A DNA stretch of 64,000 bases from an uncultured bacterium. GTDB taxonomy: Bacteria > Patescibacteriota > Andersenbacteria > UBA10190 > CAIZMI01. The stretch spans positions 10,868 through 74,867 of the forward strand of contig CAIZMI010000021.1 of assembly GCA_903934015.1 (NCBI GenBank), written 5' to 3'. This document shows, piece by piece, positions 4,087 through 43,200 of this stretch. Position 1 is the stretch's first letter; every line of letters starts with the position of its first letter. A model generated the notes under the pieces. The model was given only the letters and a program-made list of their open reading frames with translations, was not told the origin of the DNA and did not search any database. The translations under genes were made by a program, and so were the position numbers.

Positions 4087-4127
4087 CCATTCCCGTTGTC
4101 ACGGGAATGGTGGGTTAGTGTTTTTAA
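4087..4127 (+). terminator. hairpin (ccattcccgttgtcacgggaatgg) followed by a T-run; likely a rho-independent terminator after gyrA, and a copy of a dispersed hairpin repeat
   Basis: A perfect stem ttcccg/cgggaa with loop ttgtca sits 27 bp after the gyrA stop and is followed by tgggttagtgttttta. Confidence 0.5.
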
Positions 4128-4180
4128 AGCGAACGAAGTGATAGTGTTTGTTGTTCGTTATAAATATCAATTCTTAAAAC

Positions 4181-4250
4181 CACCACCCCCGAGACATCGG
4201 GGGTCTACGACGTATCGCCGTGGATTCCCGTTGTCACGGGAATGGTGGGT
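4181..4250 (+). repeat. repeat family A: composite two-hairpin element (ccaccaccccc-GA..-ggggg ... ggattcccgttgtNacgggaatgg)
   Basis: The same composite recurs at 15512..15583 (+) and inverted at 25575..25636. A solo second-hairpin copy lies at 4087..4116. Confidence 0.7.
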
Positions 4251-4342
4251 TATGTGGAGTAAAAGCAAAATTAACATCTTTCTATCAACAAACATTCGAA
4301 AGTGTTATAGTTATTACAGATAACAAACAGTCAACAAACTCC

Positions 4343-4906
4343 ATGCCAATAAATTCAATTCGTACCGGAAATTTTATTCGCCCTGACGCGGTATTGCGTG
4401 ATGTTGGTATTAAAGAGGGAATGAAAGTTGTGCATTTGGGTTGTGGTCCGGGGTTTTATGTTATTCCGGCGGCAAAATTTGTCGGTCCATCGGGTAGGGC
4501 AGTGGGTATTGATATTCGCGAACAATCGTTGCAAACATTGCGTCATAAAGCAAAAATGGAAGGATTGGATAATGTTGATGTTATCCGGGGTGACCTAGAA
4601 AAAGAGGGTGGTTCGCATTTGCCTAATGCTTGGGCGGATTTGGTAATAATGGTGAATATCTTGCATCAAAGCGATCCGCGCAAAGTAATGGCGGAGGCAG
4701 TACGCATTCTTCGTCCTGAAGTAGGCCGTCTTTTAACGATAGAATGGGAAGTAACAAATGTTCCCATGGGCCCCCCGGTGGATGATCGTATTACACCTGA
4801 TACAATTCTAGCGGCGGCTAAAAGTAATAACCTTGTCGTGTTGCGTCGTTTTAAGCCAAGTTCTTATCATTTTTCTTTTCTTTTTGCTCGCGCGATTGCG
4901 GGATGA
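4343..4906 (+). CDS. class I SAM-dependent methyltransferase
   Basis: A glycine-rich SAM-binding motif (VVHLGCGPGFY) is followed by an acidic motif (VGIDI) and a Methyltransf_11-like layout. The start was moved to the ATG at 4343, in frame with the ORF-track start at 4220; the upstream part overlaps repeat DNA. Confidence 0.65.
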   Translation: MPINSIRTGNFIRPDAVLRDVGIKEGMKVVHLGCGPGFYVIPAAKFVGPSGRAVGIDIREQSLQTLRHKAKMEGLDNVDVIRGDLEKEGGSHLPNAWADLVIMVNILHQSDPRKVMAEAVRILRPEVGRLLTIEWEVTNVPMGPPVDDRITPDTILAAAKSNNLVVLRRFKPSSYHFSFLFARAIAG

Positions 4907-6288
4907 AAACTATGTTTACGAAATTTCTAAAAAATATAAAAAAAGAGGCGGTAATTAGGGTACGACCTCTTAGAGGTCGGACCCTAAGCGGTTCATTTGC
5001 TAAGCTCGGTCTATTACTTGGCGTCGTCGCTCTCTTTGGTGCCGGTTGCGGAAAAACAAACGCCCCTCCTGCTTCCAAAACACCGATTTCTATTTGGGGT
5101 ATCTTTGATGACGCCGAGGGAATGGATCCGTTTCTTAAAACATTTTCCAACACTGAACTTCCTGGAGCAAAGGTAAGTTATCGCAAACAAAGTCCTGTGG
5201 ATCAATATGAAAATCAGTTACTAAGTGCTATCGCGGAAAATCGGGGGCCGGATGTTTTTCTTATTCATAGTTCTTGGTTACCGCGCTGGAAGAATCGTAT
5301 TTTACCGGCACCGGTGGCTATTATGAATGAGAAGCAAGTTAATGAGCAATATGTTGATTTGGTTTCCAAAGATGTTATTGCAAGTGGTCGTGTGATGGCA
5401 CTTCCGCTTTTTATGGATACATTGGCGCTTTATTACAACAAAGATATTTTTAATGCTTCGGGTGTTACTCGCGCCCCAAAAACGTGGGCGGAAGTAATGG
5501 AAATAGTGAAGCGTACGACAAAAAGTAATATGACGGAAACGAATCAAATCGATCAAAGCGGTATCGCGATGGGAACAGGGCAAAATGTAAATCGCGCTTC
5601 TGATTTATTGTCGATTTTAATGATGCAAAATGGCGTAGCGATGTTGGATGGTGATGGTAATCCCGGTTTTGGCGATAGTGCCGATGCGGTGAGGGCATTG
5701 CAGTTCTATACCGATTTTGCCAATCCCACCAAAGATGTTTACGCGTGGAATACGCGTAGCGACTATTCCATTGACGCGTTTGCGACTAATAAATCAGCAA
5801 TGATGATTAATTATTCTTATCACATGGCTACAATCAAGGCGAAAAATCCGCGTCTCAATTTTGCCATTGCGCCGTTGCCACAGGTGGAAAATTGTCCAAC
5901 TTGTAAGCCGGTAACTTATGGCGGTTATTGGTTGTTGGCTGTTTCCAAACAAACAATCAGTCCTGATACGGCTTGGCGCTTTGTGAAGTTTATGAGTAAT
6001 ACGGCTGCGAATCGTGATTATCTTCAAAAAACCGGTTATCCACCGGCCAGAAAAGATTTGATACAAGAATTGCAAAACGATCCGAGGATCGGTGTTTATA
6101 CTGTGCAAGCCTTAAACGCCGAATCATGGAAGCAAGTTGATAGTCGCTTGGTTGATCGTTTATTCTCGGAGGCAATTGATGAAGTTGTAACAGGAAAGGA
6201 CACTGCGGATGGGGCGTTAAGAAGGGCTTCTCAGCAGTTAAAGGCGGCAACAGAAACAATGAAAGCGCAGGGGAATACGACTAATTAA
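4903..6288 (+). CDS. extracellular solute-binding lipoprotein (ABC transporter substrate-binding protein, family 1-like)
   Basis: A lipobox (LFGAGC) follows a long N-terminal leader. Size and composition fit SBP_bac_1-type sugar-binding proteins. No permease or ATPase genes are adjacent. Confidence 0.6.
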   Translation: MKTMFTKFLKNIKKEAVIRVRPLRGRTLSGSFAKLGLLLGVVALFGAGCGKTNAPPASKTPISIWGIFDDAEGMDPFLKTFSNTELPGAKVSYRKQSPVDQYENQLLSAIAENRGPDVFLIHSSWLPRWKNRILPAPVAIMNEKQVNEQYVDLVSKDVIASGRVMALPLFMDTLALYYNKDIFNASGVTRAPKTWAEVMEIVKRTTKSNMTETNQIDQSGIAMGTGQNVNRASDLLSILMMQNGVAMLDGDGNPGFGDSADAVRALQFYTDFANPTKDVYAWNTRSDYSIDAFATNKSAMMINYSYHMATIKAKNPRLNFAIAPLPQVENCPTCKPVTYGGYWLLAVSKQTISPDTAWRFVKFMSNTAANRDYLQKTGYPPARKDLIQELQNDPRIGVYTVQALNAESWKQVDSRLVDRLFSEAIDEVVTGKDTADGALRRASQQLKAATETMKAQGNTTN

Positions 6289-6300
6289 ATTTATGAAATT

Positions 6301-7185
6301 ATGAAAATCTTTACAAAAACTTGTTTAACTGGCGTGTTGTTGTTATTCCCGGCGTTAGTGTGGGGCGCGCAGACAATGGTGCCGTATCCCGCAAGAAGTT
6401 TTAATATAGATTATGGCGGAGGATATACAGCGAATGTTACGATCAGCGGAAACATTAATTCGGCGAATATTAATTCAACGGTTTATAGTCAAACTGGTGG
6501 ATTTAATTTTAACGGTTTTTCTGCCGACACAACGGTATCAATTAAAGCAACGGGGTCCCCCTCATATTCTGGAGCAACAACTGCATATATAGCAGAGGGA
6601 ACTGGCACAAATAAAATGATCACGGAGAGAGTAGCGACGGATAAAAGTATTTTAAACACCACAGTTGGGGAAATTAGACAATTATCTAATCCACGGTTAA
6701 CCGTAAGACAGGCAACAGGAGAAACAAAAACAACTGGAATTGTTTCAGGGACAGAGTCATCTCGCCCTGCTTTTTTAGATCAACAGCCTGATCCGCCGTC
6801 GTCGAGTTACGGACAGCCTGGCGATAATAGTCAGTCCGCAAAAAGTCCTTCAGATACAGCGGGTGCCGGAGGGTCGGGTTCAGGCTCAAAACTCGTTCCA
6901 TGTGACGGCGCAGATTGTACGCTTGCTATGTTAAAACAAATGGGCGCGAATATTTATAATTATCTGGCCGGTTTTGGGGCGATTTTGGCGGTAGGAGCGA
7001 TTGTATTGGCCGGTTTTTCATACATCAAATCCGGTGGGGACCCATCTGCGATGAAAGAAGCAAAACAGAAGATTGTTTATGCAATAACAGGCTTGATAAT
7101 TTTGGGCGCCTCAGTATTAATTGTAAACACGGTCCTGAAAGTGTTTGAACCGAAAACATTTCAAAAAGTGGAAGATGTTAAATAA
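6301..7185 (+). CDS. secreted protein with a C-terminal VirB2/TrbC-like pilin domain (large relative of the downstream paralog array)
   Basis: It has a Sec signal peptide. The C-terminal 90 aa (YLAGFGAILAVGAIVLAGFSYIKSGGDPSAMKEAKQKIVYAITGLIILGASVLIVN) share the two-helix motif of the seven downstream paralogs. Confidence 0.6.
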   Translation: MKIFTKTCLTGVLLLFPALVWGAQTMVPYPARSFNIDYGGGYTANVTISGNINSANINSTVYSQTGGFNFNGFSADTTVSIKATGSPSYSGATTAYIAEGTGTNKMITERVATDKSILNTTVGEIRQLSNPRLTVRQATGETKTTGIVSGTESSRPAFLDQQPDPPSSSYGQPGDNSQSAKSPSDTAGAGGSGSGSKLVPCDGADCTLAMLKQMGANIYNYLAGFGAILAVGAIVLAGFSYIKSGGDPSAMKEAKQKIVYAITGLIILGASVLIVNTVLKVFEPKTFQKVEDVK

Positions 7186-7360
7186 AAATAGTGATGCAAC
7201 GTCTTTTGCCAAATTTATTTAAACCCCTCTTAATCTCCCCTTATCGAAGGGGAGAAAACGCGACGATCTCCTCCCTTTATTCAAAGGATGCACATACATC
7301 GGCGGTGTTGACCTGAAGGTCTAAAGGCGGGGAGGGATTTCGTGAAAGATTGTTGCAAAA

Positions 7361-7389
7361 TTGACCGCATTACTTAAACAAAATATAAT
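7361..7389 (+). promoter_or_regulatory. sigma70-like promoter TTGACC-N17-TATAAT upstream of the pilin-like array
   Basis: The -35 ttgacc (7361-7366), a 17-nt spacer and the -10 tataat (7384-7389) are near-consensus. They lie 11 nt upstream of the ATG at 7400. Confidence 0.5.
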
Positions 7390-7399
7390 TCACTTAAAG

Positions 7400-7780
7400 A
7401 TGATAACAAAAAACAAAATCGTTCTCGGGGTGCAAATGCTGATGTTGTCGGGGTTGGGTTTCGCGCAACTGGCTTTCGCGCAAGGAAGTGGCGGTATTCA
7501 AAATCCGATAAATGTTAATAGTTTGGAGGATCTTATTGCCAAAATTGTTAAGTACGCTCTTGGTCTTACAGCGGTATTGGCGGTTGCCTATATCGTTTAT
7601 GGTGGTTTTCTTTACATTTCTTCCGCGGGTGATGAGTCTCAACTAAAAGCCGGCAAGCAAGCAATTATCGGCGCGGTGATAGGGATTATCGTTATCGGTT
7701 TAGCATATGCGTTAGTGGAATTTGTTGTTAACGCCATGGGTGGTGGGGGTGGAGCTAATGGTGGAAATCTAAGAGGATGA
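7400..7780 (+). CDS. VirB2/TrbC-like (T4SS-pilin-like) small secreted two-helix protein, paralog 1
   Basis: It has a signal peptide, the YGGFLYISSAGDESQLKAGKQAII motif and a Gly-rich tail GGGGGANGGNLRG. The ORF-track start at 7361 is a TTG that overlaps the predicted promoter, so the ATG at 7400 is preferred. Confidence 0.65.
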   Translation: MITKNKIVLGVQMLMLSGLGFAQLAFAQGSGGIQNPINVNSLEDLIAKIVKYALGLTAVLAVAYIVYGGFLYISSAGDESQLKAGKQAIIGAVIGIIVIGLAYALVEFVVNAMGGGGGANGGNLRG

Positions 7781-8163
7781 AAAATAACATTAACAAATTG
7801 TGTATAGTAATTTTGGCTGTATTTTTTCCAGTGTTTGTATTTGCCGCAGATCTTGGTCTTGATAAAGCGGAAGGAATCGGTCTACAAGGCGGACTTGAAG
7901 AGATGATCGCAAATATTGTTAAAACAGCCTTAGGGCTCGTTGGTGCCTTAGCATTAGCGTTTATTGTTTATGGCGGATTTTTGTATGTCACGGCAGCCGG
8001 GGATGAATCGCAAATTAAAAAAGGTAAAACTGTGATTATTTACGCGATTATTGGAATTATCGTTATTGGTGTGTCTTATGCTTTGGTGTCATTTGTTGTT
8101 GGAGCCTTTAGTGGTGGAGGAAGTGGTGGTGGGGGAGCTAATGGTGGAAATCTAAGAGGATGA
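7777..8163 (+). CDS. VirB2/TrbC-like pilin-family protein, paralog 2
   Basis: Its start overlaps the stop of paralog 1 (ATGA). It carries the same core motif, and its 3' end is nearly identical at the DNA level to that of paralog 1. Confidence 0.7.
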   Translation: MKNNINKLCIVILAVFFPVFVFAADLGLDKAEGIGLQGGLEEMIANIVKTALGLVGALALAFIVYGGFLYVTAAGDESQIKKGKTVIIYAIIGIIVIGVSYALVSFVVGAFSGGGSGGGGANGGNLRG

Positions 8164-8495
8164 AAAATATTGTAAAATTTGTGTCATTGATGAGCTCTTC
8201 TTTGTTCGCCTTATCCGCACAAGCACAACTCTCCAAACCTAAAAATCCCGGGTTACCTGATACACCTTTGCCTGCAATGATAATGCAGTTAGTAAATTAT
8301 GCGCTAGGTCTAGTCGGTGTTTTGGCTCTTGGTTTTATCGTCTACGGCGGTTTTCTCTACATCACCGCTCACGGTGATGATAAACAGGTTACTTCGGCAA
8401 AAGGGATAATAATTAACGCCGTAATTGGGATCGTCGTAATTGGTTTGGCGGCCGCGCTGGTCAATTTTATTGTGAAAGGGATGACCGGCGGATAA
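8160..8495 (+). CDS. VirB2/TrbC-like pilin-family protein, paralog 3
   Basis: Its start overlaps the stop of paralog 2. It contains the motif FIVYGGFLYITAHGDDKQVTSAKGIIINAVIGIVVIGLAAALVNF. Confidence 0.7.
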   Translation: MKNIVKFVSLMSSSLFALSAQAQLSKPKNPGLPDTPLPAMIMQLVNYALGLVGVLALGFIVYGGFLYITAHGDDKQVTSAKGIIINAVIGIVVIGLAAALVNFIVKGMTGG

Positions 8496-8507
8496 AAAAG
8501 CTTATCT

Positions 8508-8536
8508 TTGTCAAAAAAAATAATTTACGTTATAAT
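8508..8536 (+). promoter_or_regulatory. sigma70-like promoter TTGTCA-N17-TATAAT
   Basis: The -35 ttgtca is at 8508-8513 and the -10 tataat at 8531-8536, 18 nt upstream of the ATG at 8555. Confidence 0.45.
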
Positions 8537-8554
8537 AATCTCAATAAAACACAT

Positions 8555-8905
8555 ATGAAAAAACTCAACATATTTAAGAAGGCATCAATTACGGCTCTTG
8601 GTCTGCTTTTGCCGATGTTTGCGTTCGCGCAAATGGGGATACAAGAAATTCAAAATTACCAAGGTTCAAACCAACGTGATCTTCCAACTGCCATTATGAC
8701 AATTGTTAATTATGCTTTAATTATTGTGGGTGTTTTGGCTCTCGCTTTTATCGTCTACGGAGGTTTTCTGTATATTACTGCTCATGGCGATGATAAGCAG
8801 GTTTCATCGGCGAAAGATATCATTATTAATGCCGTGATTGGTATTGTCGTTATAGGCATCGCGGCCGCTTTGGTAAACTTTGTAGTTGGCGCGGTGTCGC
8901 AGTAG
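8555..8905 (+). CDS. VirB2/TrbC-like pilin-family protein, paralog 4
   Basis: It has a signal peptide plus the conserved core, and is very similar to paralog 3. Confidence 0.7.
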   Translation: MKKLNIFKKASITALGLLLPMFAFAQMGIQEIQNYQGSNQRDLPTAIMTIVNYALIIVGVLALAFIVYGGFLYITAHGDDKQVSSAKDIIINAVIGIVVIGIAAALVNFVVGAVSQ

Positions 8906-8945
8906 ACAAAATTTATTTATTTTATTGGGAGGAGGTGAGTACGAC

Positions 8946-9302
8946 GTGAAAAATCGATTTCAAACAATTATCGTAGGTTTATCTATGCTCTTACCGGGTG
9001 TGGCAATGGCCCAGCTAACAGGCGCACCAGTTCCGCCAGGGACAGCGCGAGGGGATTTGGCATCCGTCATTTTGAACATTATTAATTATGTTCTCGCGAT
9101 TGTGGGTGTCGTCGCGCTCGCGTACCTCATTTACGGCGGGTTTCGTTATATCACATCCGGTGGTAATGATACGGTTATTGAAGAGGCGAAGAATGTTATT
9201 ATCAACGCGGTTATTGGTATCGTCATCATTGGTGTGGCGGCGGCCTTGGTCAATTTCGTGGTTCGCGCGGTGGGTGGCGGAGTGCCAGCCGGCGCAATTT
9301 AA
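8946..9302 (+). CDS. VirB2/TrbC-like pilin-family protein, paralog 5
   Basis: An in-frame GTG at 8946 lies 5 nt after a strong SD (gggaggaggtgag). It gives a 119-aa product with a signal peptide, matching the size of the other paralogs; the ORF-track start at 8886 overlaps the previous gene. Confidence 0.6.
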   Translation: MKNRFQTIIVGLSMLLPGVAMAQLTGAPVPPGTARGDLASVILNIINYVLAIVGVVALAYLIYGGFRYITSGGNDTVIEEAKNVIINAVIGIVIIGVAAALVNFVVRAVGGGVPAGAI

Positions 9303-9337
9303 GCAAAAATTCTGGAGGAAATGCAAACACAAAAAGT

Positions 9338-9368
9338 AAAAACACGCCCATAACGGGCGTGTTTTTTA
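9338..9368 (+). terminator. rho-independent terminator
   Basis: A GC stem (aacacgccc-ataa-gggcgtgtt) is followed by tttttt, 36 nt after the stop of paralog 5. Confidence 0.8.
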
Positions 9369-9390
9369 GTAGTCGTCATTTTTTTGTGAT

Positions 9391-9502
9391 AAACCCACCC
9401 CCGCCCTCCCTTACAAAGGGAGGGAATGCTTTAAGGAGAACGTATGCTTCAAGAACCGTTTCCTCCCCTTTGTAAGGGGAGGAACAAGGTGGGGTTTAGA
9501 TA
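9391..9502 (+). repeat. repeat family C: 112-bp imperfect palindromic element (aaacccacc...cctcccTTTgtaaggggagg...ggtggggttt), left copy flanking the DUF559 gene
   Basis: It is a near-identical direct repeat of 9891..10007. Shorter relatives occur at 7201..7335 and 60668..60705. Confidence 0.75.
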
Positions 9503-9517
9503 GTGTAAAATGCATAG

Positions 9518-9892
9518 GTGAAATCTCTCATAAAATATAGATCAGATCTAAAACAAAAAGCACGAAAACTGCGTCACGATTCCACTCCTGCGGAAAAATT
9601 CATTTGGATAAAAATCCTAAGAAACCGACAACTACTCGGTTATAAGTTTATCCGCCAGAAACCAATAGGGAATTTCGTCGTAGATTTTTTCTGCTCAAAA
9701 CTTAAATTGGCTATTGAAATAGACGGGCATACGCATGATATTGACAGTGAATACGACAAACAAAGAACAATACAACTAAACAGTTTAGGTATAGAGGTTG
9801 TCAGATATTCTAATTCTGATGTTCTGAAAAACATCGAAGGAGTTTATTGCGATTTAATGGAAAGAGTTAAGAATAATGAAAAATATTTCTAA
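9518..9892 (+). CDS. DUF559 (Vsr/endonuclease-like) domain protein
   Basis: The sequence PAEKFIWIKILRNRQLLGYKFIRQKPIGNFVVDFFCSKLKLAIEIDGHTHD...D..R...L...G..VVRYSN..V matches the DUF559 pattern (KF.RQ..IG.Y..DF.C....L.IE.DG..H). The stop TAA overlaps the first bases of the right-hand repeat. Confidence 0.7.
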   Translation: MKSLIKYRSDLKQKARKLRHDSTPAEKFIWIKILRNRQLLGYKFIRQKPIGNFVVDFFCSKLKLAIEIDGHTHDIDSEYDKQRTIQLNSLGIEVVRYSNSDVLKNIEGVYCDLMERVKNNEKYF

Positions 9893-17668: not shown

Positions 17669-17725
17669 TGGACTTTAAGGGTAACTCCTAAAGTCTCGAC
17701 TTTAGACTTTAGGAGTTACCCTTAA
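17669..17725. promoter_or_regulatory. 23-bp perfect inverted repeat (ctttaagggtaactcctaaagtc ... gactttaggagttacccttaaag) in a divergent intergenic region
   Basis: The palindrome lies between the minus-strand gene ending at 17625 and clpC, which starts at 17778. It is a candidate operator or hairpin. Confidence 0.4.
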
Positions 17726-17777
17726 AGTAATTAATGCCCTTAACACCCGACAGTGGGGGCGGTAAAATAGAGCACAT

Positions 17778-20889: not shown

Positions 20890-21292
20890 GAGGGAACAAC
20901 TGTAGGTTGTTTGGGTTTATTGAGTGATAAGGAAGATCACTGTTTTTTTGAGTTTAATGACTCCCCAAATGTCTAATTACTAATGAAATTTCAAAATGTC
21001 TAAATGCGACGCGTTCCATTAGAAATTGGGAATTAGATATTGGAAATTATTTGTGGTGATGTTGTGTATAGATGAAAAAGGTGATAATCTCGAATAAACC
21101 CTCGTAAATGGTGGAGTACAAAGGGTTCTCCATGCGTTCTCTTATTATTATTTCGATCGGTAATTGAGCGCCCAACTTTTTAGGCGGTCTTCATACACAC
21201 ATGGTTTGCGGGAAATTCCTCAATAAACCTTGTTGCATGACGATCGGTTAAATGAATTGGTAAAACCGGCGAAAAAAGAAAGGTAAAAAATT

Positions 21293-25137: not shown

Positions 25138-25366
25138 TACGAAGGGGGGAGATGAAATAATCAGGGATTTTCCTTTCGTTCACTCTGAACAGGGTTGAAG
25201 AGCAGGAGAATCCCTGATTATTTTATATTACTTATCTGTTTTTTCTTTCGATGAATTTTATATAAAGGAGTGTGATTTAGATTTGCCGGTTGTATTTGGT
25301 ATATAGTATATGAATTTGAGAAATGTTTACGTACTTCAAATTATTACGCATTTTTAAAGTTGTTAG

Positions 25367-25477: not shown

Positions 25478-25574
25478 ATGGGAGCATCCTTTATGTACAC
25501 TATTACTTCCGCTTGTAACTACTCACTCCAATGAAAGTTGCTCCATATTTCAATCAAACCTTATTCAAATCACC

Positions 25575-25636
25575 CATTCCCGTAACAACGGGAATCCACT
25601 TTTTGGTCCCCCGGAGTCTTTGGGGGTGGTGGTTTT
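25575..25636 (-). repeat. repeat family A composite element (inverted copy)
   Basis: Its reverse complement, ccaccacccccaaagactccgggggacc...ggattcccgttgttacgggaatgg, matches 4181..4250 and 15512..15583. Confidence 0.7.
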
Positions 25637-25861
25637 TCAAGGACTTAATAATCTATTCAAACTTTCATACTGGTGAGTAGTTACATCCTGCATTACACAT
25701 TATTGACAAAACCTGGAAAAGGGAGTAGCGTTATTCGTTAGTTCACGGGAGTGCAGGGCGTGAGGGAGCCTGATCCTTCACAATTGAATATGGGTTAGTT
25801 TCAAGTGGTAGGCTCGTGCTTACCTCAAATTCAAGAGCCGGAAAACGGCAAGGAGTGAAAG

Positions 25862-26296: not shown

Positions 26297-28123
26297 AGCC
26301 GCATGAGGACTCGATAAACTTCATCGTTCAATAAAATCGAACGGTCAAACAGTCTGATGAGAAATCTTCAAGGCTGTTTTTTTTATGAATAAATAAACAT
26401 ATTTATAATAAAGGTCTATATAAATAGGGAGGTAAGTAAATTAAACTAGTAATTTTACGGAGTATCCTTTCGCAAGATACTCCCTAAAACAATGTACTAA
26501 TACAATTAACCTCGCGTAGGGGCAATTCATGAATTGCCCAAAAATAGCACGCCGAAATTTGTATCGATATGTTAATGAAATAAATTTTGTTTTGATTTGA
26601 TATGGAAAAGAAAATGTGCGTCTGGTAAAAAACAACAAGACAATTTTTAAGGTCCGACCCTTGCAATGGTTGGACCTTAAAGTGTCACAACAGGTCGCCA
26701 AAAAATACGTAATAAAATAGGTTACCAAATAAGTAAACGGTATGAACACTATCGTTGTGCAGACAGAACACAAATAGTGTTCAATAGTTAAATATGAGCA
26801 CAAATTGGCTTCAATAATCACTATATTATGATGAAAATTAATGTGTAAAGTATTACAAAAATATCGAGTAATGAGAGAATGAAATCGTGATTGATTATGT
26901 TAAAAAGTGAGCGAATTGTTTGATCTGCCAGCCCATTGAATATGTAATATATTGCTGTTTAAATTGGTAGAAAATTGACTGAAACAAATGCATGATTTAA
27001 ATGAAAATTCGTGACAATATTGTTATAAGATATGGCAATATATTTATTTAATTTTGTCGCGTAATTAGTATATGAAGTAAATAAAAATATGTTGTATATT
27101 CGTGTGCTGAAAAGTTCATTGTTGTGTCCAGTTTTATTGAAATAAGAAAGCTTAATTGATTCATATATTTATATGATTGACGTTGGGAATATATATCCCT
27201 TGTTGCGTATTTGTTGTACTCATTCTGCTCACGAACAGGTGTAACAATGCGATAAGTGATGATTGTATTCTACGCAATAAATCGTTTATGGATGATGTTG
27301 CTAAGTATAGGTAAGCAGTTCTCCTTCAAGGTGGTGCACGCTTGTACTATCTCCGAGTTGGACGTTACAAAAACACTCTTTACTTACAAGCGGTAATAAT
27401 TATTGGTGGAAAATTAATATTCGTGGCTCGCTACGCGTGAAGTGTTGTGGTTGTTACAGTTTGAGCCATTATTTTCCGGACATATTCTTCCTCTGTGGAA
27501 AAGTAGGGAGGTGAATAGTTAATCATTAATCAAATTGTTATTAGGTAAATTAATTCAATTATTAATTTGCGTGCTTAGGTAAGCCAAATTAGTTATTTTT
27601 TATTGAAGGATTGACGAGACCTCTTTTTTCTGCTATGATAAATGGGTAGTAAGTAGTTTGTTCATTCGAAATTGACTTAAATCCATCGGTCGAAGGTGTT
27701 AATGAATTGGAGTCACCTTTCGACCACTAATCTCCCCCTATTAGTGGTCGTAAGGTGTCTCTGAACAAAGTGATGTGCACGCATCCATCAAAAAAACAAA
27801 AACAAACACCTCAAAAAAAGATTGCACTTTTGATCTTTGGAGGAGATAGGTAGGAAAAAGAGTTTTTGGGAGATTAATCTTTTTCTTCACCGGAAGATCG
27901 GAGTCACCGACTTATTCGTTCGTGCAGGAGAATAAGTGAAATCGCTCTAAGCGTCATGAAGTCATGTCCTCCGGGCACTCGTACACAGAATAATTTCTGT
28001 TTAGGAGCGCTCGGACGATGTGCAGACTCTTAGGGCTTAAAGCCCTAGTAGGCACATATTTATTTATTGGCCGTTATCTAGGGCTTTTCCATATCTATTA
28101 AATTTATCCATCATAAAAATCAA

Positions 28124-28480: not shown

Positions 28481-28483
28481 TTA

Positions 28484-31542: not shown

Positions 31543-31555
31543 TGTTGATTCCGTT

Positions 31556-32143: not shown

Positions 32144-32152
32144 GAATATTTT

Positions 32153-32740: not shown

Positions 32741-32745
32741 AAGAT

Positions 32746-33339: not shown

Positions 33340-33348
33340 TTTTTAATT

Positions 33349-33714: not shown

Positions 33715-33740
33715 TTGGATTTAATAATAAAGATTATCAA

Positions 33741-34742: not shown

Positions 34743-35110
34743 ACAAAGATATTTCAATTTTAGTAGTTGACGATTCAGCTTTCATGCGACAATACATTAT
34801 TGGGTTTTTGCATGAATTGGGTTATGAAAAAATCAGTGAGGCTGGTAATGGTCCTGCCGCATTGAATGCAGTAAACGAGAGTATGCCGGATGTTGTTTTG
34901 TTGGACATGATTATGCCAATAATGGATGGTATGGAGGCTTTGGAGAAACTCGTAGAATTAAACGCGCGCGTAATTGTTGTTACCGCGATGGGTCAACGTA
35001 TTACGATCGTGAAAGCCATTGAAAAAGGTGCGCGTGGTTATTTTGTAAAACCATTTTTCACGGCACATGAGTTGGGACGTAAAATTGAAGAGGTAATAAA
35101 CGAGGATTAA
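34739..35110 (+). CDS. CheY-like response regulator (single REC domain)
   Basis: REC motifs are ILVVDDSAFMR...VLLDMIMP...VVTAMGQ...KPF. Confidence 0.8.
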   Translation: MNKDISILVVDDSAFMRQYIIGFLHELGYEKISEAGNGPAALNAVNESMPDVVLLDMIMPIMDGMEALEKLVELNARVIVVTAMGQRITIVKAIEKGARGYFVKPFFTAHELGRKIEEVINED

Positions 35111-35113
35111 AAG

Positions 35114-37848: not shown

Positions 37849-37857
37849 CTATCTTTT

Positions 37858-38460
37858 ATGTTTACAGAATTTGAGCAAGATGAGTTGAGAGAAATTGTAA
37901 ATATCGGTTCCGGTAACGCGAGCACGGCATTAGCAAAAATGCTAAAACAAAAAATCCATGCGTCCGTGCCGTTGATTTTGTTTGACGAGGTGCAGAATAT
38001 TTTACCAAAACTCGGGTTGGCCGATAGTCGTGTGACCGTTGTTTTAGTGCGTGTCGATGGCGAGATTCCCGGAGTCTTCTTTATTGCGTTGCCATTAGAA
38101 AACGGATTGGAGTTGGCATCCATGCTGACGGGCGAAGAAAAATCAGGGACTCTCTTGAATGAATTTGGCAGCTCCGCACTTAAAGAAGTGGGGAACATTC
38201 TCTCCGGGGCGTCACTTACGGCACTTTCAAAGTTTTTAGGTTTGGATTTTGTGCAGTCTGTTCCGGAAATTACATCTGATATGCTGGGGGCAATTTTGGA
38301 GTCGATTTTAGTCGAGACGGGTGAAGCGTATGAAAAAATTCTTTTGATTAGCACGAACCTGGATTTTGCTACCGATTGTCACGCGCGATTGTTCTTCGTT
38401 TTCAATCCGGATGCAACAAATGGAATATTGTCGGCTGTTCAGCGGAAATTAGAAAAATAA
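37858..38460 (+). CDS. cheC: chemotaxis phosphatase CheC
   Basis: The classic CheC motifs ELREIVNIGSGNASTALAKML and ALKEVGNILSGASLTALSKFLG are present. Confidence 0.8.
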   Translation: MFTEFEQDELREIVNIGSGNASTALAKMLKQKIHASVPLILFDEVQNILPKLGLADSRVTVVLVRVDGEIPGVFFIALPLENGLELASMLTGEEKSGTLLNEFGSSALKEVGNILSGASLTALSKFLGLDFVQSVPEITSDMLGAILESILVETGEAYEKILLISTNLDFATDCHARLFFVFNPDATNGILSAVQRKLEK

Positions 38461-38462
38461 TT

Positions 38463-38930
38463 ATGCATGAGGATGTAAAATACATTGGCACTGGCGAGGT
38501 GGCGGTTTCAAGTACCGGCATCATCAAAACTTCCGGTATCGGATCCTGTATTGTCGTGACGCTTTACGATGGTGAGAAAAAAATTGGCGGGATGGTGCAT
38601 GCGATGCTACCGGCGAGAAAAGAGAATGGAACGGAGTATCTTTTATCTCCAAAATATACCGATGAAGCAATTGAAATTTTAATTGATGAAATTGAACAAC
38701 AAGGTGGTAGCAGAGAAAGGTTAAAAGCAAAGTTGATTGGCGGTGCAAAAATGTTTCGGTTGTTGAGTGGCGATAACTTTGGAATTGGTTTTAAGAATAT
38801 TGAATCAGCCAGGGAAAATCTTGGGGCTATCGGGATCTTGATTGAGAGTGAAGATGTTGGTGGCACTATTGGGCGCAGTGCGGAATTAAATCTGGAGAAT
38901 GGTTTGGTTTTAGTCAGTTCGATGATGTAG
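38463..38930 (+). CDS. cheD: chemoreceptor glutamine deamidase CheD
   Basis: The CheD motif GIGSCIVVTLYD...GMVHAMLP is present. The start was moved to the ATG at 38463, directly after the CheC stop; the ORF-track start at 38376 overlaps cheC. Confidence 0.8.
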   Translation: MHEDVKYIGTGEVAVSSTGIIKTSGIGSCIVVTLYDGEKKIGGMVHAMLPARKENGTEYLLSPKYTDEAIEILIDEIEQQGGSRERLKAKLIGGAKMFRLLSGDNFGIGFKNIESARENLGAIGILIESEDVGGTIGRSAELNLENGLVLVSSMM

Positions 38931-38959
38931 GGGCGTTACTTGATGATTATTAAACTTTC

Positions 38960-40471
38960 ATGTCCGCAATAGTTAGATCAGTTACACTTACCGGTTTAGA
39001 TGTTCATCCAGTTGATGTGGAAGTGGAGGTTTTGCCTGGGCTTCCGTCGGTAACAATCGTTGGTTTGCCGGATACTGCCGTAAAAGAGGCGAAGGAAAGG
39101 ATTGTCGCGGCGCTGGCAAATTCTGGTTTCGAACCACCCAGGCACCGAACGATTGTAAATTTAATGCCCGCCCACATTCGTAAGGTGGGACCACAGTTTG
39201 ATTTGCCGATTGCGTTGGCATTTTTGATGGCAACAGGACAATTGACTGCGCGGGTGGAACATTTTGTGTTTGTGGGCTCTTTGGGCTTAGATGGAAAATT
39301 GCAACCGATTTTGGGGACGGTGGCAATGGGAGACTATGTGAAAAATTTTGGTAAAGATATTCTGTTTGTTCCGAAAGAAAATGGTCGGGAAGCGGTTTTG
39401 GCCGGTGGTGAAGTAATTGCCGTGGAAAGTTTGCGGGCGATTGTGGAGCACTTAGAAAATCGATCACCGCTGGCACCGATAGTGAAAGATGAAGAAGAAG
39501 AAACCGTTGAATATTACATCGGGACAAATTTTAGGGAGATTGCCGGACAAGAGCATGCCAAACGGGCATTGGAAGTGGCAGCGGCGGGTGGTCATAACGT
39601 GCTTTTGCATGGTCCACCAGGATCGGGAAAGACTTTATTGGCACGCGCTTTTGCGGGCATTCTGCCACGACTAAGTAAGTCAGAAGCTTTTGAGGTTACA
39701 AAAATATACAGCATTAAAGGATTACTGTCGGCACAGGATGCTTTAATCAGCACGCGTCCTTTTCGTTCGCCACATCATTCCACGTCTGCTGTCGCTTTGA
39801 TTGGTGGCGGAAGTAATCCGCAACCGGGAGAGGTAACGCTGGCACATCGTGGGGTGTTGTTTTTGGACGAATTTGCGGAATTTCCGCGCACTGTGCTGGA
39901 TCATATGCGTGAACCGTTAGAAGAAGGTTTTGTGACCGTTAGTAGAGCGGCGGGCAGTCAAAGTTTCCCGGCAAGGTTTTCACTAGTCGCAGCAATGAAT
40001 CCTTGTCCGTGTGGTTACTACGGTGATTCCAATCGCACCTGTTCTTGTGGGGCGGGGGAAGTGGCAAAATATCAACGACGTGTTTCAGGGCCACTTTTGG
40101 ATCGTATTGATTTACATGTGCATGTGCCGGCCGTAAAAGCCGATATTGTTTTGGATCATTTTGAAGCGGAGCCGTCTGAAAAAATTCGGGAACGGATTGA
40201 GAAAGCTAGGACAAAACAACGACAGCGTTTTTCGGCAGAAAAAGCGAACGCGGAAATGAGCGGGGAACAGATTCGAAAATATTGTGAGTTGTCACCGGAA
40301 AGTCGAAACCTGTTAGCACGGGCCGCCGAAAGTTTACGTTTGAGTACTAGGGCAGTGCATCGAACAATCAAGGTTGCTCGTACGATCGCCGATTTGGCAA
40401 ATGAAGCGGATATATCATCAGCGCATCTGGCAGAAGCTTTACAGTATCGGACGCCGTTGGGAGAGAACTAA
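38960..40471 (+). CDS. comM: YifB/ComM-family Mg-chelatase-like AAA+ ATPase
   Basis: It has an N-terminal Lon-protease-like domain, Walker A GPPGSGKT and a ChlI-type AAA core. Confidence 0.85.
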   Translation: MSAIVRSVTLTGLDVHPVDVEVEVLPGLPSVTIVGLPDTAVKEAKERIVAALANSGFEPPRHRTIVNLMPAHIRKVGPQFDLPIALAFLMATGQLTARVEHFVFVGSLGLDGKLQPILGTVAMGDYVKNFGKDILFVPKENGREAVLAGGEVIAVESLRAIVEHLENRSPLAPIVKDEEEETVEYYIGTNFREIAGQEHAKRALEVAAAGGHNVLLHGPPGSGKTLLARAFAGILPRLSKSEAFEVTKIYSIKGLLSAQDALISTRPFRSPHHSTSAVALIGGGSNPQPGEVTLAHRGVLFLDEFAEFPRTVLDHMREPLEEGFVTVSRAAGSQSFPARFSLVAAMNPCPCGYYGDSNRTCSCGAGEVAKYQRRVSGPLLDRIDLHVHVPAVKADIVLDHFEAEPSEKIRERIEKARTKQRQRFSAEKANAEMSGEQIRKYCELSPESRNLLARAAESLRLSTRAVHRTIKVARTIADLANEADISSAHLAEALQYRTPLGEN

Positions 40472-41547
40472 ATTTTCAATGATCAATTTCCAATTTTGCA
40501 ATTAATTATCAATTTTTAATTTTCAAAACAGCTTCTTCTGAAAATTGAGGCTTGAACATTATTTGAAAATTGATAATTAGAAATTGAAAATTAGAAAGTG
40601 CTGGGGTTATAGTAAATCAAAACAATAAAATATGGCTAATAAAAGCTAAGAATTAGCAGTATTCATACTATACTATTGACAATTTCGTTTTTTTAGAGTA
40701 TACTTCAGAGTTATTTAATCGAAGGAATTAGGTGATTGAACCGCCCCTTTGACAATTGAATAATGAAGGTAGGATGCTAAAAAGATTTTTTGGCACTCCG
40801 CCCATGGCGGCACAGTCGGTTATCCGGTTGGTCGCCAGAGGCGGGGGGATAAAAAGGATTGCTGAGCATTGTCTGTCTGTAAGGATGGGCAAGGCGAAGC
40901 AATTTTCCCAAGTCCGATAGGAAGCGGGCAATAGGGGCGTGGTTTTAACTCAATCCACGATAAAAAATGGGCGTGGGGATTCATACTCTGGATCCCCACC
41001 ATACTTGAGTTTCTCACTTGTCCCAAAAGACTTGTCGGAAATTCAAGATTTGGTTAAAATCGTGGAAATACCCGGATCTGCCTCGGGTGTACATTCTTTT
41101 TTCAGACCGTATTTCGCCTGGTTAGGTGAAAGGCAGAACGGTCAGCAACGCCAGAGGGAAAGGACCTACCAAATGGCGCGTGGCAATATTTCTGAAATGC
41201 CCCCTGTCGAGCCGGGGCGACAAGTTTCAGCTCGAGTGTTTTGTATCGGGGGTTGCGTCAGGCGTGTCGGGAATAAGGAAGCCGAAAAGCCCGCCGTTGC
41301 TGATGACGCCGGAGGCGACGACACCACCTTCACCACGGACGGCCAGGTCGACGCGACCATTAACGCGTCGTCCGCCCAGTCGACCTCGGTCGACGAAGAG
41401 TCGAAAGGGTGGGTCTGGAAACCCACTCGGACGGCGGCCATGGAGCACGCCGAACGACACACCAAACCGCGTCGGTGGGTGCGCGTCGGCTCCGGCGCGT
41501 CGACTGGTGCCATCGGCACCGGATGTCGTCGCTAGCCGACCGTCGCT

Positions 41548-41620
41548 GTCATTCCTGGCCATGACCAGGAATCAGCGACGACCGCGATGACTGGCTCCTG
41601 CTCGTGGGCAGGAGCGACAA
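41548..41620 (+). repeat. repeat family B two-hairpin element
   Basis: gtcattcctggccatgaccaggaatcagcgacg...ggctcctgctcgtgggcaggagcgaca. A direct repeat of the same element lies at 43094..43200. Confidence 0.7.
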
Positions 41621-42230
41621 TAAAAAAACCGAAGCGATCGAGTCAATGGACTCTTTCGCTTCGGGATTCACAAATGGTAACGAGAGGAATATTATTTCGT
41701 TATCGGTTGTGTGTTTTTTTCAAAGTTCGCTGTTTCGAAATGGCCACGAAAAGGACGCGTTTCGTGGTTCAAGACAGGGTGCGTCAGGGAGGGGATGGCT
41801 ATGTGTTGGATGGATCAGGTTCAGGAGGCGGTGGTACTGGAGACGGAAGAAATCCATCGGTGTCCTGGTCGAAGGGTGGGCTGGAAGCCTCATCCGGTTC
41901 GTGATGTTCTCGGACATCCGGTTAATCGCAGGGTTCTTCGTGCGGTTGAACGCCAGGTTGAAAAGGAATTCGGCCTGCCTTGTTCGTCGCAAAAAGTGCG
42001 ACCACGGTAGTGTTCCGATGGTCGAGGAATTTTTTCACCCCACACACAGTTTTACTGGATCGTGTGGGGTACATCTCTCGGTTTGGCAAGAAGTACTTAC
42101 TGGCTCGAGAAGATGTGCAAAATAAAATACAAAGGAATAAGATAAAGCGTATGGGGGAGTAGTTCTTTTAGAACTGAACCCTTTTCAAGTTTCGTAACTG
42201 GTGCAAAACTCCAAAGAAAGGAGGCTTGTC

Positions 42231-42659
42231 ATGTCACCGGCTCAAAAGTTTTATGAATGGTTGGAGGTTGTTCTTAACAGTATCGATGTTGGACAGGTGT
42301 TCCTGATTCACAGGGAGGAATCTAATGTTGTCTTTGCATCCACCGGTGAGGTGTTGAACATCCCCAGACTCGTTGTTGCCTGTGATGAGATCCCAGAAGA
42401 CATGGAAGTTATTGTTGGTGGTATTTCACAAGTTTTCGACGAGTTTGATTCACAGCTGTGGGCCAATGAGAGGCATGGGGAGTATCTTATTGGGTGGGCC
42501 CGACCGCTAAACATCACGAGACAAGGAAAGTCGTTAGTTTTCTCGACTGGAGAGCCTAAAGATATTCCATGGATGCGGGGGGTTCCATGCGGGTACCATA
42601 ATGAGACTCAAGAATGGAATGTCAGGAGGAAACTCGCGGAATTGGATGGTTGTTATTAG
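42231..42659 (+). CDS. hypothetical protein
   Basis: An ATG lies 6 nt after an AAGGAGG SD, and the ORF is not embedded in overlapping frames. It lies between the two family B repeat copies. Confidence 0.45.
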   Translation: MSPAQKFYEWLEVVLNSIDVGQVFLIHREESNVVFASTGEVLNIPRLVVACDEIPEDMEVIVGGISQVFDEFDSQLWANERHGEYLIGWARPLNITRQGKSLVFSTGEPKDIPWMRGVPCGYHNETQEWNVRRKLAELDGCY

Positions 42660-43093
42660 GACGAGGCTTGTTTGAGCGCAAAGCGTCATTGGGACGCTTT
42701 GCGCGAAGAAAAACGAGTATCATAATCTCGTCCACTTACCAGTAATCGCAAAAACATTGTGATCACTGGTAAGGAGAAAAAATGAAAAAACAATAAGTGG
42801 CTTACCACTTATCGAATATAGTGTTTTGTGTTTTTTTGTTTCACTACCTGGTTCGTAGCGAGTTTGGGTAGAAGCTTTTTTTTTAGGAGGGTAAGGACGT
42901 GGATATGGGGCATATTGCTTTGGTGTTTGTGACTGCAGTGGTGGCGTTTTTTTGGGGTCGGTTTAACTGCAATCCAACCATCTGGAGTTAGTGATTGGCG
43001 GAAATGGGAGTGGTCCGCCATTATTTGTCGAGAGTTGGTCTAATAGGCCAGCTCTTTTTTATTTCATCTTTAAAAAAATATTCTTATAAGTCC

Positions 43094-43200
43094 GTCATTC
43101 CTGGCTCATTGTCCCGCGTAGCCTTGTGTGAAGTGGGAGTGACCAGGAATCACCGACGATCGTAACGACGGGCTCCTGCTCGTAGGCAGGATCGACACGG
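43094..43200 (+). repeat. repeat family B two-hairpin element
   Basis: gtcattcctggctc...gagtgaccaggaatcaccgacg...gggctcctgctcgtaggcaggatcgacacgg. Confidence 0.7.

Follow-up and report, generated by a model that had tools for sequence, protein, structure and literature searches.

Intergenic palindromic dimers of three families in an Andersenbacteria genome and their candidate nuclease partners

The window, by which we mean the whole 64,000-nucleotide stretch of DNA analysed here, carries three families of short palindromic repeats, A, B and C, every copy of which is intergenic (Table 1). Two family C composites frame a DUF559 endonuclease gene that is inserted in a tandem array of T4SS-pilin paralogues, and a GC-rich island has edges in GC content that coincide with family B clusters. 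Motif searches against shuffled sequences confirmed all copies listed by an earlier sequence-only reading as far above chance, with folds far more stable than those of shuffled sequences, and its coordinates were borne out, the position 7201 given for family C being approximate. Its remark that pairs of repeats surround a selfish gene or a GC-rich insert also held, for the DUF559 gene (9518–9892) and the island (~10.5–14.1 kb) respectively. Of 52 perfect hairpins with a stem of at least 8 bp, 41 fall in non-coding DNA, which makes up ~17% of the window. The elements have a GC content of 0.49–0.62 against 0.43 for the window, with the exception of a family B copy that contains an AT-rich loop insert.

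Table 1. Palindromic elements and associated features of the window (positions are those of the window).
Feature	Position	Strand	Evidence or context
Family A solo right-hand unit (ATTCCCGTTGTCACGGGAAT + GGTGGGTTA)	4084..4117		24 nt past gyrA stop codon
Family A inverted dimer: A1 (CCACCA-CCCCCG..CGGGGG-TCTACG), spacer, reverse-complement A2	4176..4252	+	fold -46 kcal/mol, z -5.3
Family C-type hairpin (TCTCCCCTT..AAGGGGAGA, G-rich third block) and split unit (CCTCCCTTTATTCAAAGG, 34-nt insert, GGCGGGGAGGGATTT)	7224..7340		motif match, fold
Family C composite: TAAACCCACC, hairpin 1, spacer, hairpin 2, GGTGGGGTTTA	9391..9505		fold z -4.6; ends 12 nt before DUF559 start codon
DUF559 / Vsr-like PD-(D/E)XK endonuclease gene, 124 aa	9518..9892	+	PF04480; PDB 3HRL, E 6e-20
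Family C composite overlapping DUF559 stop codon	9891..10008		right 55 nt 96% identical to 9448-9502
Family B cluster, three TGTC-type units (+, -, +), degenerate third at 10513	10423..10541		22 nt past pilin gene; left edge of GC-rich island
GC-rich island (0.48-0.61), low skew; minus-strand genes without family assignment and SPFH gene	10542..14129		bounded by family B clusters
Family B inverted dimer (TGTCATTCCTGGTCGTGACCAGGAATC ... GGCTCCTGCTCACGGGCAGGAGCGACA)	14130..14217		fold z -4.0; right edge of GC-rich island
Family A inverted dimer	15508..15588	+	fold z -4.3, A2 motif match
Family B single unit, 75-nt AT-rich insert in loop	25365..25467	+	motif match, fold
Inverted-repeat arms, 26 nt, 25514-25539 and 25660-25685, 85% complementary	25514..25685		enclose family A copy
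Family A inverted dimer, opposite orientation, centred in another inverted repeat	25563..25642	-	motif match
Family B inverted dimer	41547..41619		11 nt past stop of gene 41005-41535; fold z -5.8
Family B inverted dimer, 32-nt hairpin within loop of first unit	43093..43197		motif match, fold
Family C-type solo unit, uninterrupted form of 7268-7340	60665..60705		motif match, fold

In every family a single palindromic unit is repeated as an inverted dimer, in the manner of REP doublets, and the heads of the two units face outward. The two hairpins of a dimer are reverse complements of each other (B1 and reverse-complemented B2 agree at 20–22 of 29 nt, A1 and reverse-complemented A2 at 22–25 of 34 nt), and what had been taken for composites of several stems are therefore inverted dimers of a single unit. 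The family C copies at 9391–9505 and 9891–10008 are likewise inverted pairs, with a possible TA at the ends of the composites. Families A, B and C are real palindromic elements with a selfish look. All assemblies of the organism are 100% identical and hold no polymorphic copy of any family, so mobility of the three families in the present genome can only be inferred.

The family B unit has the form TGTC-ATTCCTGG..CCAGGAAT-C. The pair GTCATTCCTG..CAGGAATC occurs with short loops at 10424 (as the GTCGTTCC variant), 14131 and 41548 and with loop inserts at 25366 (75 nt) and 43094 (32 nt); exact short-loop matches number two in the window and none in shuffles. Its counterpart GGCTCCTGC..GCAGGAGC is found at 14191, 41593 and 43171 and, in variant form, at 10472. 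Stems are of 9 bp with a 4-nt loop (ATTCCTGGT/ACCAGGAAT) or of 8 bp with 6-nt loops (ATTCCTGG and GCTCCTGC), and begin with AT except in B2, where they begin with GC. The head is TGTC in seven of eight aligned units, the 10472 variant having ATC, while the loop-insert copies carry CGTC (43093) and AGTC (25365). In all units but that variant GTC stands directly 5′ and C directly 3′ of the palindrome. Four of the five family B sites are inverted dimers or clusters.

Judged from these features, family B is a member of the CGTC/TGTC-tagged REP superfamily, that is, the dRS3/NTS/SRM repeats, a known cross-phylum class that the sequence-only reading did not recognise. Members of this superfamily have an unpaired CGTC head (TGTC or CCTC being allowed), a stem of 8–9 bp starting with A-T pairs, a loop of 4–5 nt and a 3-nt tail fitting CCA, and occur between genes, mostly as inverted dimers (Di Nocera et al. 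2013, PMC3733652). Set against the CCA rule, the tails in the window read CAA, CAG, CCG, CCCG and CCAG. Direct recognition of this repeat class by an enzyme was shown experimentally in Neisseria (Chenal et al. 2025, PMC11893778), where Ssn, a 94-amino-acid GIY-YIG enzyme, binds the hairpin on one strand of single-stranded DNA, with its cut lying upstream of the GTC head by a few nucleotides; for SsnA, cleavage and binding are determined by the GTC 5′ and the C 3′ of the palindrome. In that system the ssn gene encodes a single-domain GIY-YIG protein of the cd10448 type and is usually flanked by the repeats. Searching bacteria at one genome per species for GTCATTCCTGG-N4-8-CCAGGAATC yielded over 117 stretches, where our own estimate put the expected number at roughly 5, and B-type hairpins occur in Gammaproteobacteria, Nitrospirota, Bacteroides, Campylobacterota, Planctomycetota and several CPR groups. 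Across phyla the units carry a TGTC head in 122 of 155 cases and a C followed by a CAG tail in 79 of 155. Single-domain, Ssn-like GIY-YIG genes of 94–95 aa lie directly beside B-type hairpins in three other genomes.

Family C, again judged from its sequence, has the “triplex-motif” build of BoxC/PIT/TMECO, a nested palindrome with a mirror image; the sequence-only reading saw neither this likeness nor the tie to DUF559. A pyrimidine arm followed, after a loop, by the complementary purine arm and then by a short loop and a G-rich third block occurs four times in the window (7224, 9395, 9460 and 9967) and in none of 20 shuffles, while the strict TMECO consensus CCCTCNCCC-N3-6-GGGNGAGGG-N3-GGGNGAGGG has no match on either strand of the window. 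Intrastrand triplex formation by TMECO has been studied with CD or NMR (PMC4666352).

The neighbourhood of DUF559 and such palindromes recurs well beyond the present bacterium. BoxC-like elements were present at all 15 DUF559 loci that we inspected, including those of Deinococcus and E. coli ycjD. Polypyrimidine-stem hairpins lay at most 125 nt from DUF559 in 10 of 12 cases (110 kb, four genomes), and 72 of the 120 top homologues have translated-hairpin extensions, compared with 2% in a shuffled control. In the paa operon of Deinococcus psychrotolerans a DUF559 gene sits between paaD and paaZ, enclosed by 56-nt terminal inverted repeats with 98% complementarity, whereas the paaD-paaZ site of Deinococcus sp. 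QL22 is free of the gene; in this one comparison of a filled with a gene-free site the flanks are too diverged for a target-site duplication to be defined. The ycjD gene of E. coli K-12 is 170 nt away from TMECO #9. The gene is carried by 3378 of 5426 E. coli genomes, and the median number of TMECO-like matches per genome is 18 with ycjD and 4 without it, as raw genome counts that ignore kinship. This pairing of DUF559 and palindrome, from the present bacterium to E. coli, is not described in the searchable literature, and we know of no biochemical activity for any DUF559 of this clade. We tentatively suggest that the DUF559 (Vsr-like PD-(D/E)XK) proteins of this clade might be dedicated partners of BoxC/PIT/TMECO-type palindromes across Bacteria, the framed gene being a minimal selfish cassette able to insert into the spacers of operons and the gene-less palindromes its non-autonomous offspring, a proposal to which we give rather less than even weight. 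The spacers concerned are those of the pilin array, paaD-paaZ, sufB-sufC and MFP-RND. If true, DUF559-BoxC would join RAYT-REP and Ssn-NTS as a third partnership of nuclease and repeat and would supply an origin for the long-unexplained BoxC elements of E. coli.

Family A is a lineage-specific hybrid dimer of the same construction as families B and C. Its A2 motif GGATTCCCGTTGTNACGGGAATGG lies on the plus strand at 4087 (two mismatches), 4222 and 15558 and on the minus strand at 25574, with no occurrence in shuffles, and its A1 motif CCACCACCCCC..GGGGG at 4180, 15512 and 25622 (minus strand). The solo unit near gyrA shares 29 identical nt with 4224–4252, and the copy within the 26-nt arms at 25514–25685 makes up a nested palindrome. 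The outer ends are C-like (AAACCACC/GGTGGGTT), and one hairpin fits the dRS3 core (ATTCCC-N8-GGGAAT) but without a GTC head. Neither relatives nor a partner gene of family A were identified, and it was found nowhere outside the present sequence.

Taking the families together, we think it fairly probable that all three are REP/REPIN-like intergenic elements, two of them belonging to cross-phylum classes that are partnered by small stand-alone nucleases instead of RAYT transposases and family A being specific to its lineage. The short units, arranged as inverted dimers, would extrude hairpins in single-stranded DNA. Family B would have an Ssn-type GIY-YIG partner, as in other bacteria, and two copies of family C would form the ends of a small cassette with the DUF559 nuclease as its only gene, the gene-less copies at 7224–7340 and 60665–60705 being MITE-like derivatives of it. 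Recognition and nicking of the hairpins by these nucleases may then drive spread, homing or local recombination in the present genome.

A different cause for the same associations, which we consider unlikely but worth weighing, is that the palindromes are fragile sites of non-B-DNA (cruciform or triplex) that act as recombination hot spots without a dedicated enzyme, and that DUF559 genes, GIY-YIG genes and islands accumulate there because the sites permit insertion. Raised local variability at E. coli TMECO loci (PMC4666352), the divergence of E. coli genomes about 40 nt from TMECO #9, the islands that abut family B dimers, the inserts within hairpin loops (25366, 43094 and 7268–7340) and the element centred in another palindrome all suit this idea. 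It leaves unexplained, however, why at 15 of 15 loci, across phyla, a particular nuclease family stands beside a particular repeat type, why 56-nt inverted ends surround a single gene and why repeats are fewer where ycjD is absent, and enzyme-repeat recognition has been demonstrated for the B class in Neisseria (PMC11893778).

It is improbable that the copies are independent, convergent rho-independent terminators with neither common origin nor mobility. Six copies do begin 11–60 nt past a stop codon and T-rich tails follow a few, but the intrinsic-terminator criterion of a GC-rich hairpin with a T-run directly after it, placed downstream of a same-strand gene, flagged only 4085 and 10427 (plus strand) and A1 (minus strand); most copies have no T-run. 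There is no enrichment of terminator-like sites (20 found, 16.4 expected), and termination, which the sequence-only reading proposed for several copies, is not supported as a general role. Between copies it is sequence, beyond structure, that is conserved over 24–55 nt, some copies lie upstream of genes or within other palindromes, and the same sequences stand beside nuclease genes in distant phyla. Earlier studies that PMC4666352 cites saw no terminator activity of PIT/BoxC.

Two transposase-based origins are more doubtful again. Classical REP/BIME spread by a RAYT (an IS200/IS605-type Y1 transposase) whose gene lies elsewhere in the genome would account for dispersed, GC-rich inverted dimers of short intergenic palindromes, which is the REPIN layout; yet the heads are TGTC in family B, CCACCA in family A and AAACCCACC in family C, none of them GTAG, PF01797 has no match among the genes called in the window and its flanks, and no transposase was found linked to CGTC-tagged REPs (Di Nocera et al., PMC3733652). 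Within the window and its flanks the suggested RAYT or IS200/IS605 link finds no support, while the likeness to REP/BIME or MITE behaviour survives in the dispersed GC-rich palindromes and the pairs bracketing a gene or insert, with partners that look like small nucleases. Still less credible is an origin as MITEs of a conventional DDE-transposase insertion sequence elsewhere in the genome: the elements have terminal inverted repeats, are 70–120 bp long and intergenic and, in the family C composites, may end in TA, but the window contains no transposase gene, no clear target-site duplication was found, the arms are palindromes in their own right, as is usual for REP-type but not for IS-derived MITEs, and DUF559 is the only gene between such ends. 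To our knowledge DUF559 is not a transposase. That the repeats are structured small RNAs or mRNA-stabilising 3′ hairpins under host selection seems least credible of all, for despite strong predicted folds and many copies at gene 3′ ends there is no Rfam match even at E<=1, copies occur in both orientations relative to neighbouring genes, any RNA from the elements would be strand-ambiguous because the dimers are symmetrical, and SsnA is inactive on RNA (PMC11893778).

Like REP/BIME-RAYT (REPIN) systems, the window combines a nuclease-type gene flanked by its own palindromes with dispersed, gene-less intergenic inverted dimers; unlike them it lacks the GTAG head and an HUH/Y1 transposase, and its candidate partners are GIY-YIG and PD-(D/E)XK (Vsr-like) nucleases, for which we know of no transposition chemistry. 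The elements resemble MITEs such as the Correia elements of Neisseria in being short, gene-less, intergenic, bounded by terminal inverted repeats and able to nest, but neither a target-site duplication nor a parent IS could be identified, and their arms are themselves hairpins.

Family C is like BoxC/PIT/TMECO (Holder et al. 2015) in its C-rich arm, loop, G-rich arm, 3–5 nt loop and second G-rich block and, like TMECO, is frequently found as intergenic tandem-inverted (“palindromic”) pairs; the window stretch CCCACCCTAACCCTCTCCCCAG nearly equals CCTCACCCTAACCCTCTCCCCAG of E. coli. It differs in its CCTCCCC/GGGGAGG stems, which leave the strict consensus unmatched, and in the two copies that frame a DUF559 gene, whereas Holder et al. 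found no associated mobility or nuclease gene.

Family B differs from NTS/SRM in having the stem ATTCCTGG instead of ATTCCCGC, and its units have T where the published degenerate SRM search sequence requires V, which is why that sequence has no match in the window (0–1 in shuffles). Its tails are AAC/AGC/ACC against CCA/CAG, two copies have large loop inserts, and, unlike in NTS/SRM-Ssn, the 74.7 kb formed by the window and 10.7 kb of extra flank contain no GIY-YIG/ssn gene. It nevertheless shares with the CGTC-REP/dRS3/NTS/SRM class the (C/T)GTC head, the AT-starting stem of 8–9 bp, the short loop, the C after the palindrome and the intergenic inverted dimers with spacers of 20–40 nt that bracket variable genes. 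The dimers around the GC-rich island and around a second small-gene pair match the NTS-gene-NTS layout described in Neisseria.

All hairpin copies that the sequence-only reading had listed for families A, B and C, three dispersed repeat families, are present in the window. Every copy is intergenic, most are GC-rich (0.49–0.62 vs 0.43 for the window), and on folding most reach z-scores of −3 to −5.8 relative to shuffled sequence. In all three families the first hairpin is repeated, as its reverse complement, in the second. B1 matches the reverse complement of B2 at 20–22 of 29 nt and A1 that of A2 at 22–25 of 34 nt (1 and 2 being the first and second hairpins of a composite), while hairpin 1 of family C likewise pairs with the reverse complement of its hairpin 2. 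A composite thus consists of one unit present twice in inverted orientation (an inverted dimer), with the heads facing outward. Inserts interrupt the hairpin loops of two B copies and one C copy, and the minus-strand copy of family A forms the centre of another, 26-nt inverted repeat, so that insertion seems to favour hairpin tips, consistent with either loop-directed nicking or instability of palindrome centres.

The window is bacterial chromosome and not phage, as gyrA, clpB, rpsO-pnp, a chemotaxis operon and a type I restriction system indicate. It also holds tandem T4SS-pilin (PF18895) paralogues and recG, has 43% GC with GC skew positive throughout, and bears most genes on the plus strand. 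The many PF18895 paralogues are what suggests a CPR-like organism. A phage origin was tried and rejected, a megablast of 20 kb against phages giving only short housekeeping matches. The sequence recurs at 100% identity in several ENA and Logan metagenome assemblies, and no presence/absence differences of repeat copies between strains were found, 13 of 13 contigs of other assemblies being identical to the window. Two contig ends diverge from it, one break (L002) falling within a pilin paralogue. The type I restriction system has a second hsdS upstream of hsdM.

Coordinates of features in the window
Feature	Position	Remark
T4SS-pilin/TrbC-like tandem array	6301–10400	six to seven paralogues, period ~375 bp; DUF559 cassette between last two
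DUF559/Vsr-like gene, 124 aa	9518–9892	framed by two family C composites
Family B copy, variant or loop-insert	10424	
Family B copy, variant or loop-insert	10513	
Family B copy, variant or loop-insert	25366	
Family B copy, variant or loop-insert	43094	
B cluster	10423–10541	edge of 3.6-kb island
B cluster	14130–14217	edge of 3.6-kb island
tRNA-adjacent module	15633–16087	
tRNA-adjacent module	52811–53570	
Perfect palindrome, 23 bp	16038–16087	abuts tRNA-Leu 3' end; one assembly breaks inside, at 16059
Perfect palindrome, 25 bp	17672–17728	
AT-rich tandem 14-nt repeats (ATTAGAAATTGNNA)	21018–21056, 40562–40600	upstream of pnp and downstream of Mg-chelatase-like gene
~1.3 kb at 35% GC	26800–28100	no called gene or ORF of at least 60 aa; beside A/B-containing spacer
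Bro-N domain gene	47960–48796	between hsdS and hsdR
Fourth tRNA	53292–53362	Rfam 44.8 bits; missed by ARAGORN
22-nt exact direct repeat, first copy	53441–53462	overlaps last ~21 nt of ARAGORN tRNA-Arg(tcg) call, 53385–53461
22-nt exact direct repeat, second copy	53757–53778	

The two tRNA-adjacent modules are dense in long perfect hairpins (stems 9–23 bp) and share pieces that are 81–89% similar (15633–15759 with 52811–52938; 15999–16036 with 53018–53055). On the strand opposite tRNA-Leu they contain GTTCGAGTCTCTC strings that resemble a tRNA T-arm, and Rfam gave no match in either. The 22-nt direct repeat encloses ~300 bp with 19- and 20-bp perfect hairpins and resembles the att-type duplication that integration of a small element would leave. 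Compared with the window and locus L011, locus L010 (BUCK21-1 scaffold_1642) has a tandem duplication of ~160–180 bp beside tRNA-Arg(tct), at its positions 7287–7305 (window 52943–53120). The two perfect palindromes lie in divergent or tRNA-flanking spacers.

Each half of a family C element runs from a pyrimidine arm through a loop to a purine arm, and from there over a second loop of 4–5 nt to a G-rich block, as in TCCTCCCC-TTTGTAA-GGGGAGGA-ACAA-GGTGGGGTTT. The complete element joins such a half to its mirror image and is closed by AAACCCACC/GGTGGGGTTT; the window has four instances of this build and 20 shuffles none. The BoxC/PIT/TMECO triplex-motif repeats of E. coli are built in the same way, and CCCACCCTAACCCTCTCCCCAG is common to BoxC and the window; the strict TMECO consensus has no match in the window. 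At the gene for DUF559, a Vsr-like PD-(D/E)XK nuclease, one family C composite ends 12 nt before the start codon and the other overlaps the stop codon, and the C-DUF559-C unit is inserted as a whole into the pilin array.

This DUF559 protein has 804 homologues over many phyla, the best only 51–58% identical. N- or C-terminal extensions (NQPPSVPPCQGG, SPDKGRAGEGF, PPLSGG etc.) are found in 72 of the 120 top homologues, vs 2% in a shuffled control, and are translations of such palindromes. At the DNA level, elements lie beside the DUF559 gene at 15 of 15 loci inspected, from at least six phyla (the window, three MAGs, Picosynechococcus, Pseudanabaena, Synechocystis, Azospirillum, Shinella, Sphingomonas, Deinococcus, Photobacterium, N. 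gonorrhoeae and two E. coli). Within four longer loci totalling 110 kb, 10 of 12 polypyrimidine-stem hairpins are at most 125 nt from DUF559. The cassettes occupy operon spacers, namely paaD-paaZ, sufB-sufC, an RND adaptor/pump gap and the pilin array. Inverted ends of 56 nt, 98% complementary, flank the gene in Deinococcus psychrotolerans, and Deinococcus sp. QL22 has paaD-paaZ without the gene; with flanks only 77% identical, exact insertion boundaries in Deinococcus are not definable. None of the papers searched connects DUF559 or ycjD, a DUF559 gene of E. coli, to repeats. We regard the association of DUF559 with family C as very probably real, and suggest more tentatively, from that association only, that DUF559 might act on C-type elements.

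In E. coli K-12, ycjD lies 170 nt from TMECO #9 with degenerate copies in between; Holder et al. (PMC4666352) state explicitly that there is no mobility gene near TMECOs. Of 5426 complete E. coli genomes, 3378 carry the gene. Across an even sample of 60 genomes, the median number of TMECO-like matches per genome was 18 with ycjD vs 4 without it (Mann–Whitney p = 4e-10, a statistic that ignores kinship), and the global means agree (~19 and ~6). Genomes without ycjD (O157:H7, locus L148, compared with K-12, locus L147) diverge ~40 nt before TMECO #9 and have a TetR/RND efflux island there instead.

Family B units take the form TGTC-ATTCCTGG..CCAGGAAT-C, with a stem of 8–9 bp (ATTCCTGG or GCTCCTGC), a loop of 4–6 nt and a C directly after the palindrome. 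The short-loop B1 motif has two exact occurrences in the window and none in shuffles. TGTC heads seven of eight aligned units, the exception being the variant at 10472 (ATC), and the loop-insert copies have CGTC (43093) and AGTC (25365). When one genome per bacterial species was scanned with GTCATTCCTGG-N4-8-CCAGGAATC, the matches listed included more than 117 stretches, against ~5 expected by our own estimate. Those listed came from Gammaproteobacteria, Coxiellaceae, Ca. Magnetobacterium, a Bacteroides MAG, Sulfurovum, Uabimicrobium, Omnitrophota and Brocadia, and from many CPR groups (Saccharibacteria, Gracilibacteria, Peribacteria, Microgenomates, Blackburnbacteria, Parcubacteria). Among 155 units from the matches listed, the head is TGTC in 122 and CGTC in 26, the tail is CAG in 79, and many of the listed units are followed 10–40 nt on by an inverted unit ending ..GGAATGAC.

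The CGTC-tagged REPs defined by Di Nocera et al. 2013 (PMC3733652) form inverted dimers and have “no dedicated transposase”; their units show a CGTC/TGTC head, a stem of 8–9 bp that starts AT, a loop of 4–5 nt and a CCA tail. The NTS/SRM repeats have as partner Ssn, a 94-aa single-domain GIY-YIG nuclease that binds the hairpin solely as ssDNA, cuts a few nt upstream, and depends on the base triplet 5' of the palindrome and on the C that directly follows the palindrome (Chenal et al. 2025, PMC11893778). In three genomes, one a Gracilibacteria MAG, genes for GIY-YIG proteins (PF01541) of 94–95 aa begin no more than ~15–20 nt from such a unit. Given these neighbouring genes and the match of unit features to the published definitions, family B is probably a new member of the CGTC/SRM class, which is itself already known. 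The published SRM pattern has no match in the window, where T stands at a position requiring V, and the tail form common in the class differs from family B tails. A tblastn search with an Ssn-like protein found no GIY-YIG gene in the 74.7 kb of the organism's readable sequence (window plus flanks). The lineage-specific B pattern had six matches in a metagenome collection without this organism, all in coding-looking GC-rich DNA with no hairpin context and consistent with chance. The island edged by the two B clusters has 48–61% GC and flat skew, and B dimers at 41547 and 43093 enclose two small ORFs; Pfam and NCBIfam gave no family for ORFs of the island or beside B copies. In one MAG (CBDBHR010000030.1; loci L096 and L038), TGTC-type units form long tandem arrays (period 51–74 nt), interleaved with repeated GTCATTTCATCGAGTT pieces, beside truncated Ssn-like gene fragments.

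Family A comprises three dimers and one solo unit, closely alike (A2 24/24 nt); four occurrences of the 24-nt A2 motif in the window compare with none in shuffles. Its outer ends resemble family C (AAACCACC..GGTGGGTT). The dRS3 core ATTCCC-N8-GGGAAT fits the A2 hairpin, but A2 has ACC where NTS-type units carry GTC. In scans of viral contigs A2 and the C core had no matches, and A1 had three, roughly the chance number, one of them a plain terminator-like hairpin. With no relatives in the fetched loci or viral contigs, family A looks lineage-specific and recent.

On balance we lean towards a picture in which hairpin units are nicked by small nuclease partners and then spread through repair. It draws on direct observations, namely the anatomy, class assignment by sequence, gene–repeat associations, one filled vs gene-free site and the co-variation in E. 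coli. In single-stranded DNA arising during replication, transformation or repair, the units would extrude as hairpins, and a small nuclease would recognise head and stem and nick nearby. The candidate for family B is Ssn, on the strength of homology to a system demonstrated by experiment, and for family C it could be DUF559, by association only. Repair would then copy, move or recombine the element and whatever lies between two elements. The strongest rival holds that the repeats are enzyme-free fragile sites; TMECO loci are known variability hot spots, but fragility leaves both the one-gene-one-repeat specificity and the 56-nt inverted ends unexplained. We also considered RAYT-driven REPs, plain terminators and IS-derived MITEs. 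The sequence-only reading had proposed REP/BIME- or MITE-like elements, with a RAYT to be looked for and several copies probably terminators; the REP/MITE-like character held up, whereas a RAYT type and termination as the main role did not. Structured RNAs were considered as well, and Rfam gave no match at the repeats at the gathering threshold or at E ≤ 1.

Few short bacterial repeats are as widespread as CGTC-type REPs and BoxC/triplex motifs. Neither had a known partner enzyme until 2025, and BoxC is still without a known one. Here both classes stand side by side in one small genome, with one class framing a DUF559 gene. The 15/15 pairing and the ycjD/TMECO co-variation make the origin and upkeep of BoxC-like repeats directly testable, reducing the BoxC question to one small protein and one oligonucleotide, and the C-DUF559 pairing is worth a bench test. 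If DUF559 were structure- or sequence-specific it could serve as a useful tool enzyme, in the way Ssn does for ssDNA. Many N- and C-terminal extensions annotated on DUF559 proteins (GRAGEG, PPCQGG, PLSGG etc.) are spurious and are explained by these repeats.

The inverted dimers with outward heads in all three families have the same layout as REP doublets, and the B clusters and dimers flanking the island and the two small ORFs echo the NTS-gene-NTS layout of Neisseria. Beside these systems, the pairing of family C with DUF559 seems to be a variation on the nuclease-plus-palindrome theme that has not been described before.
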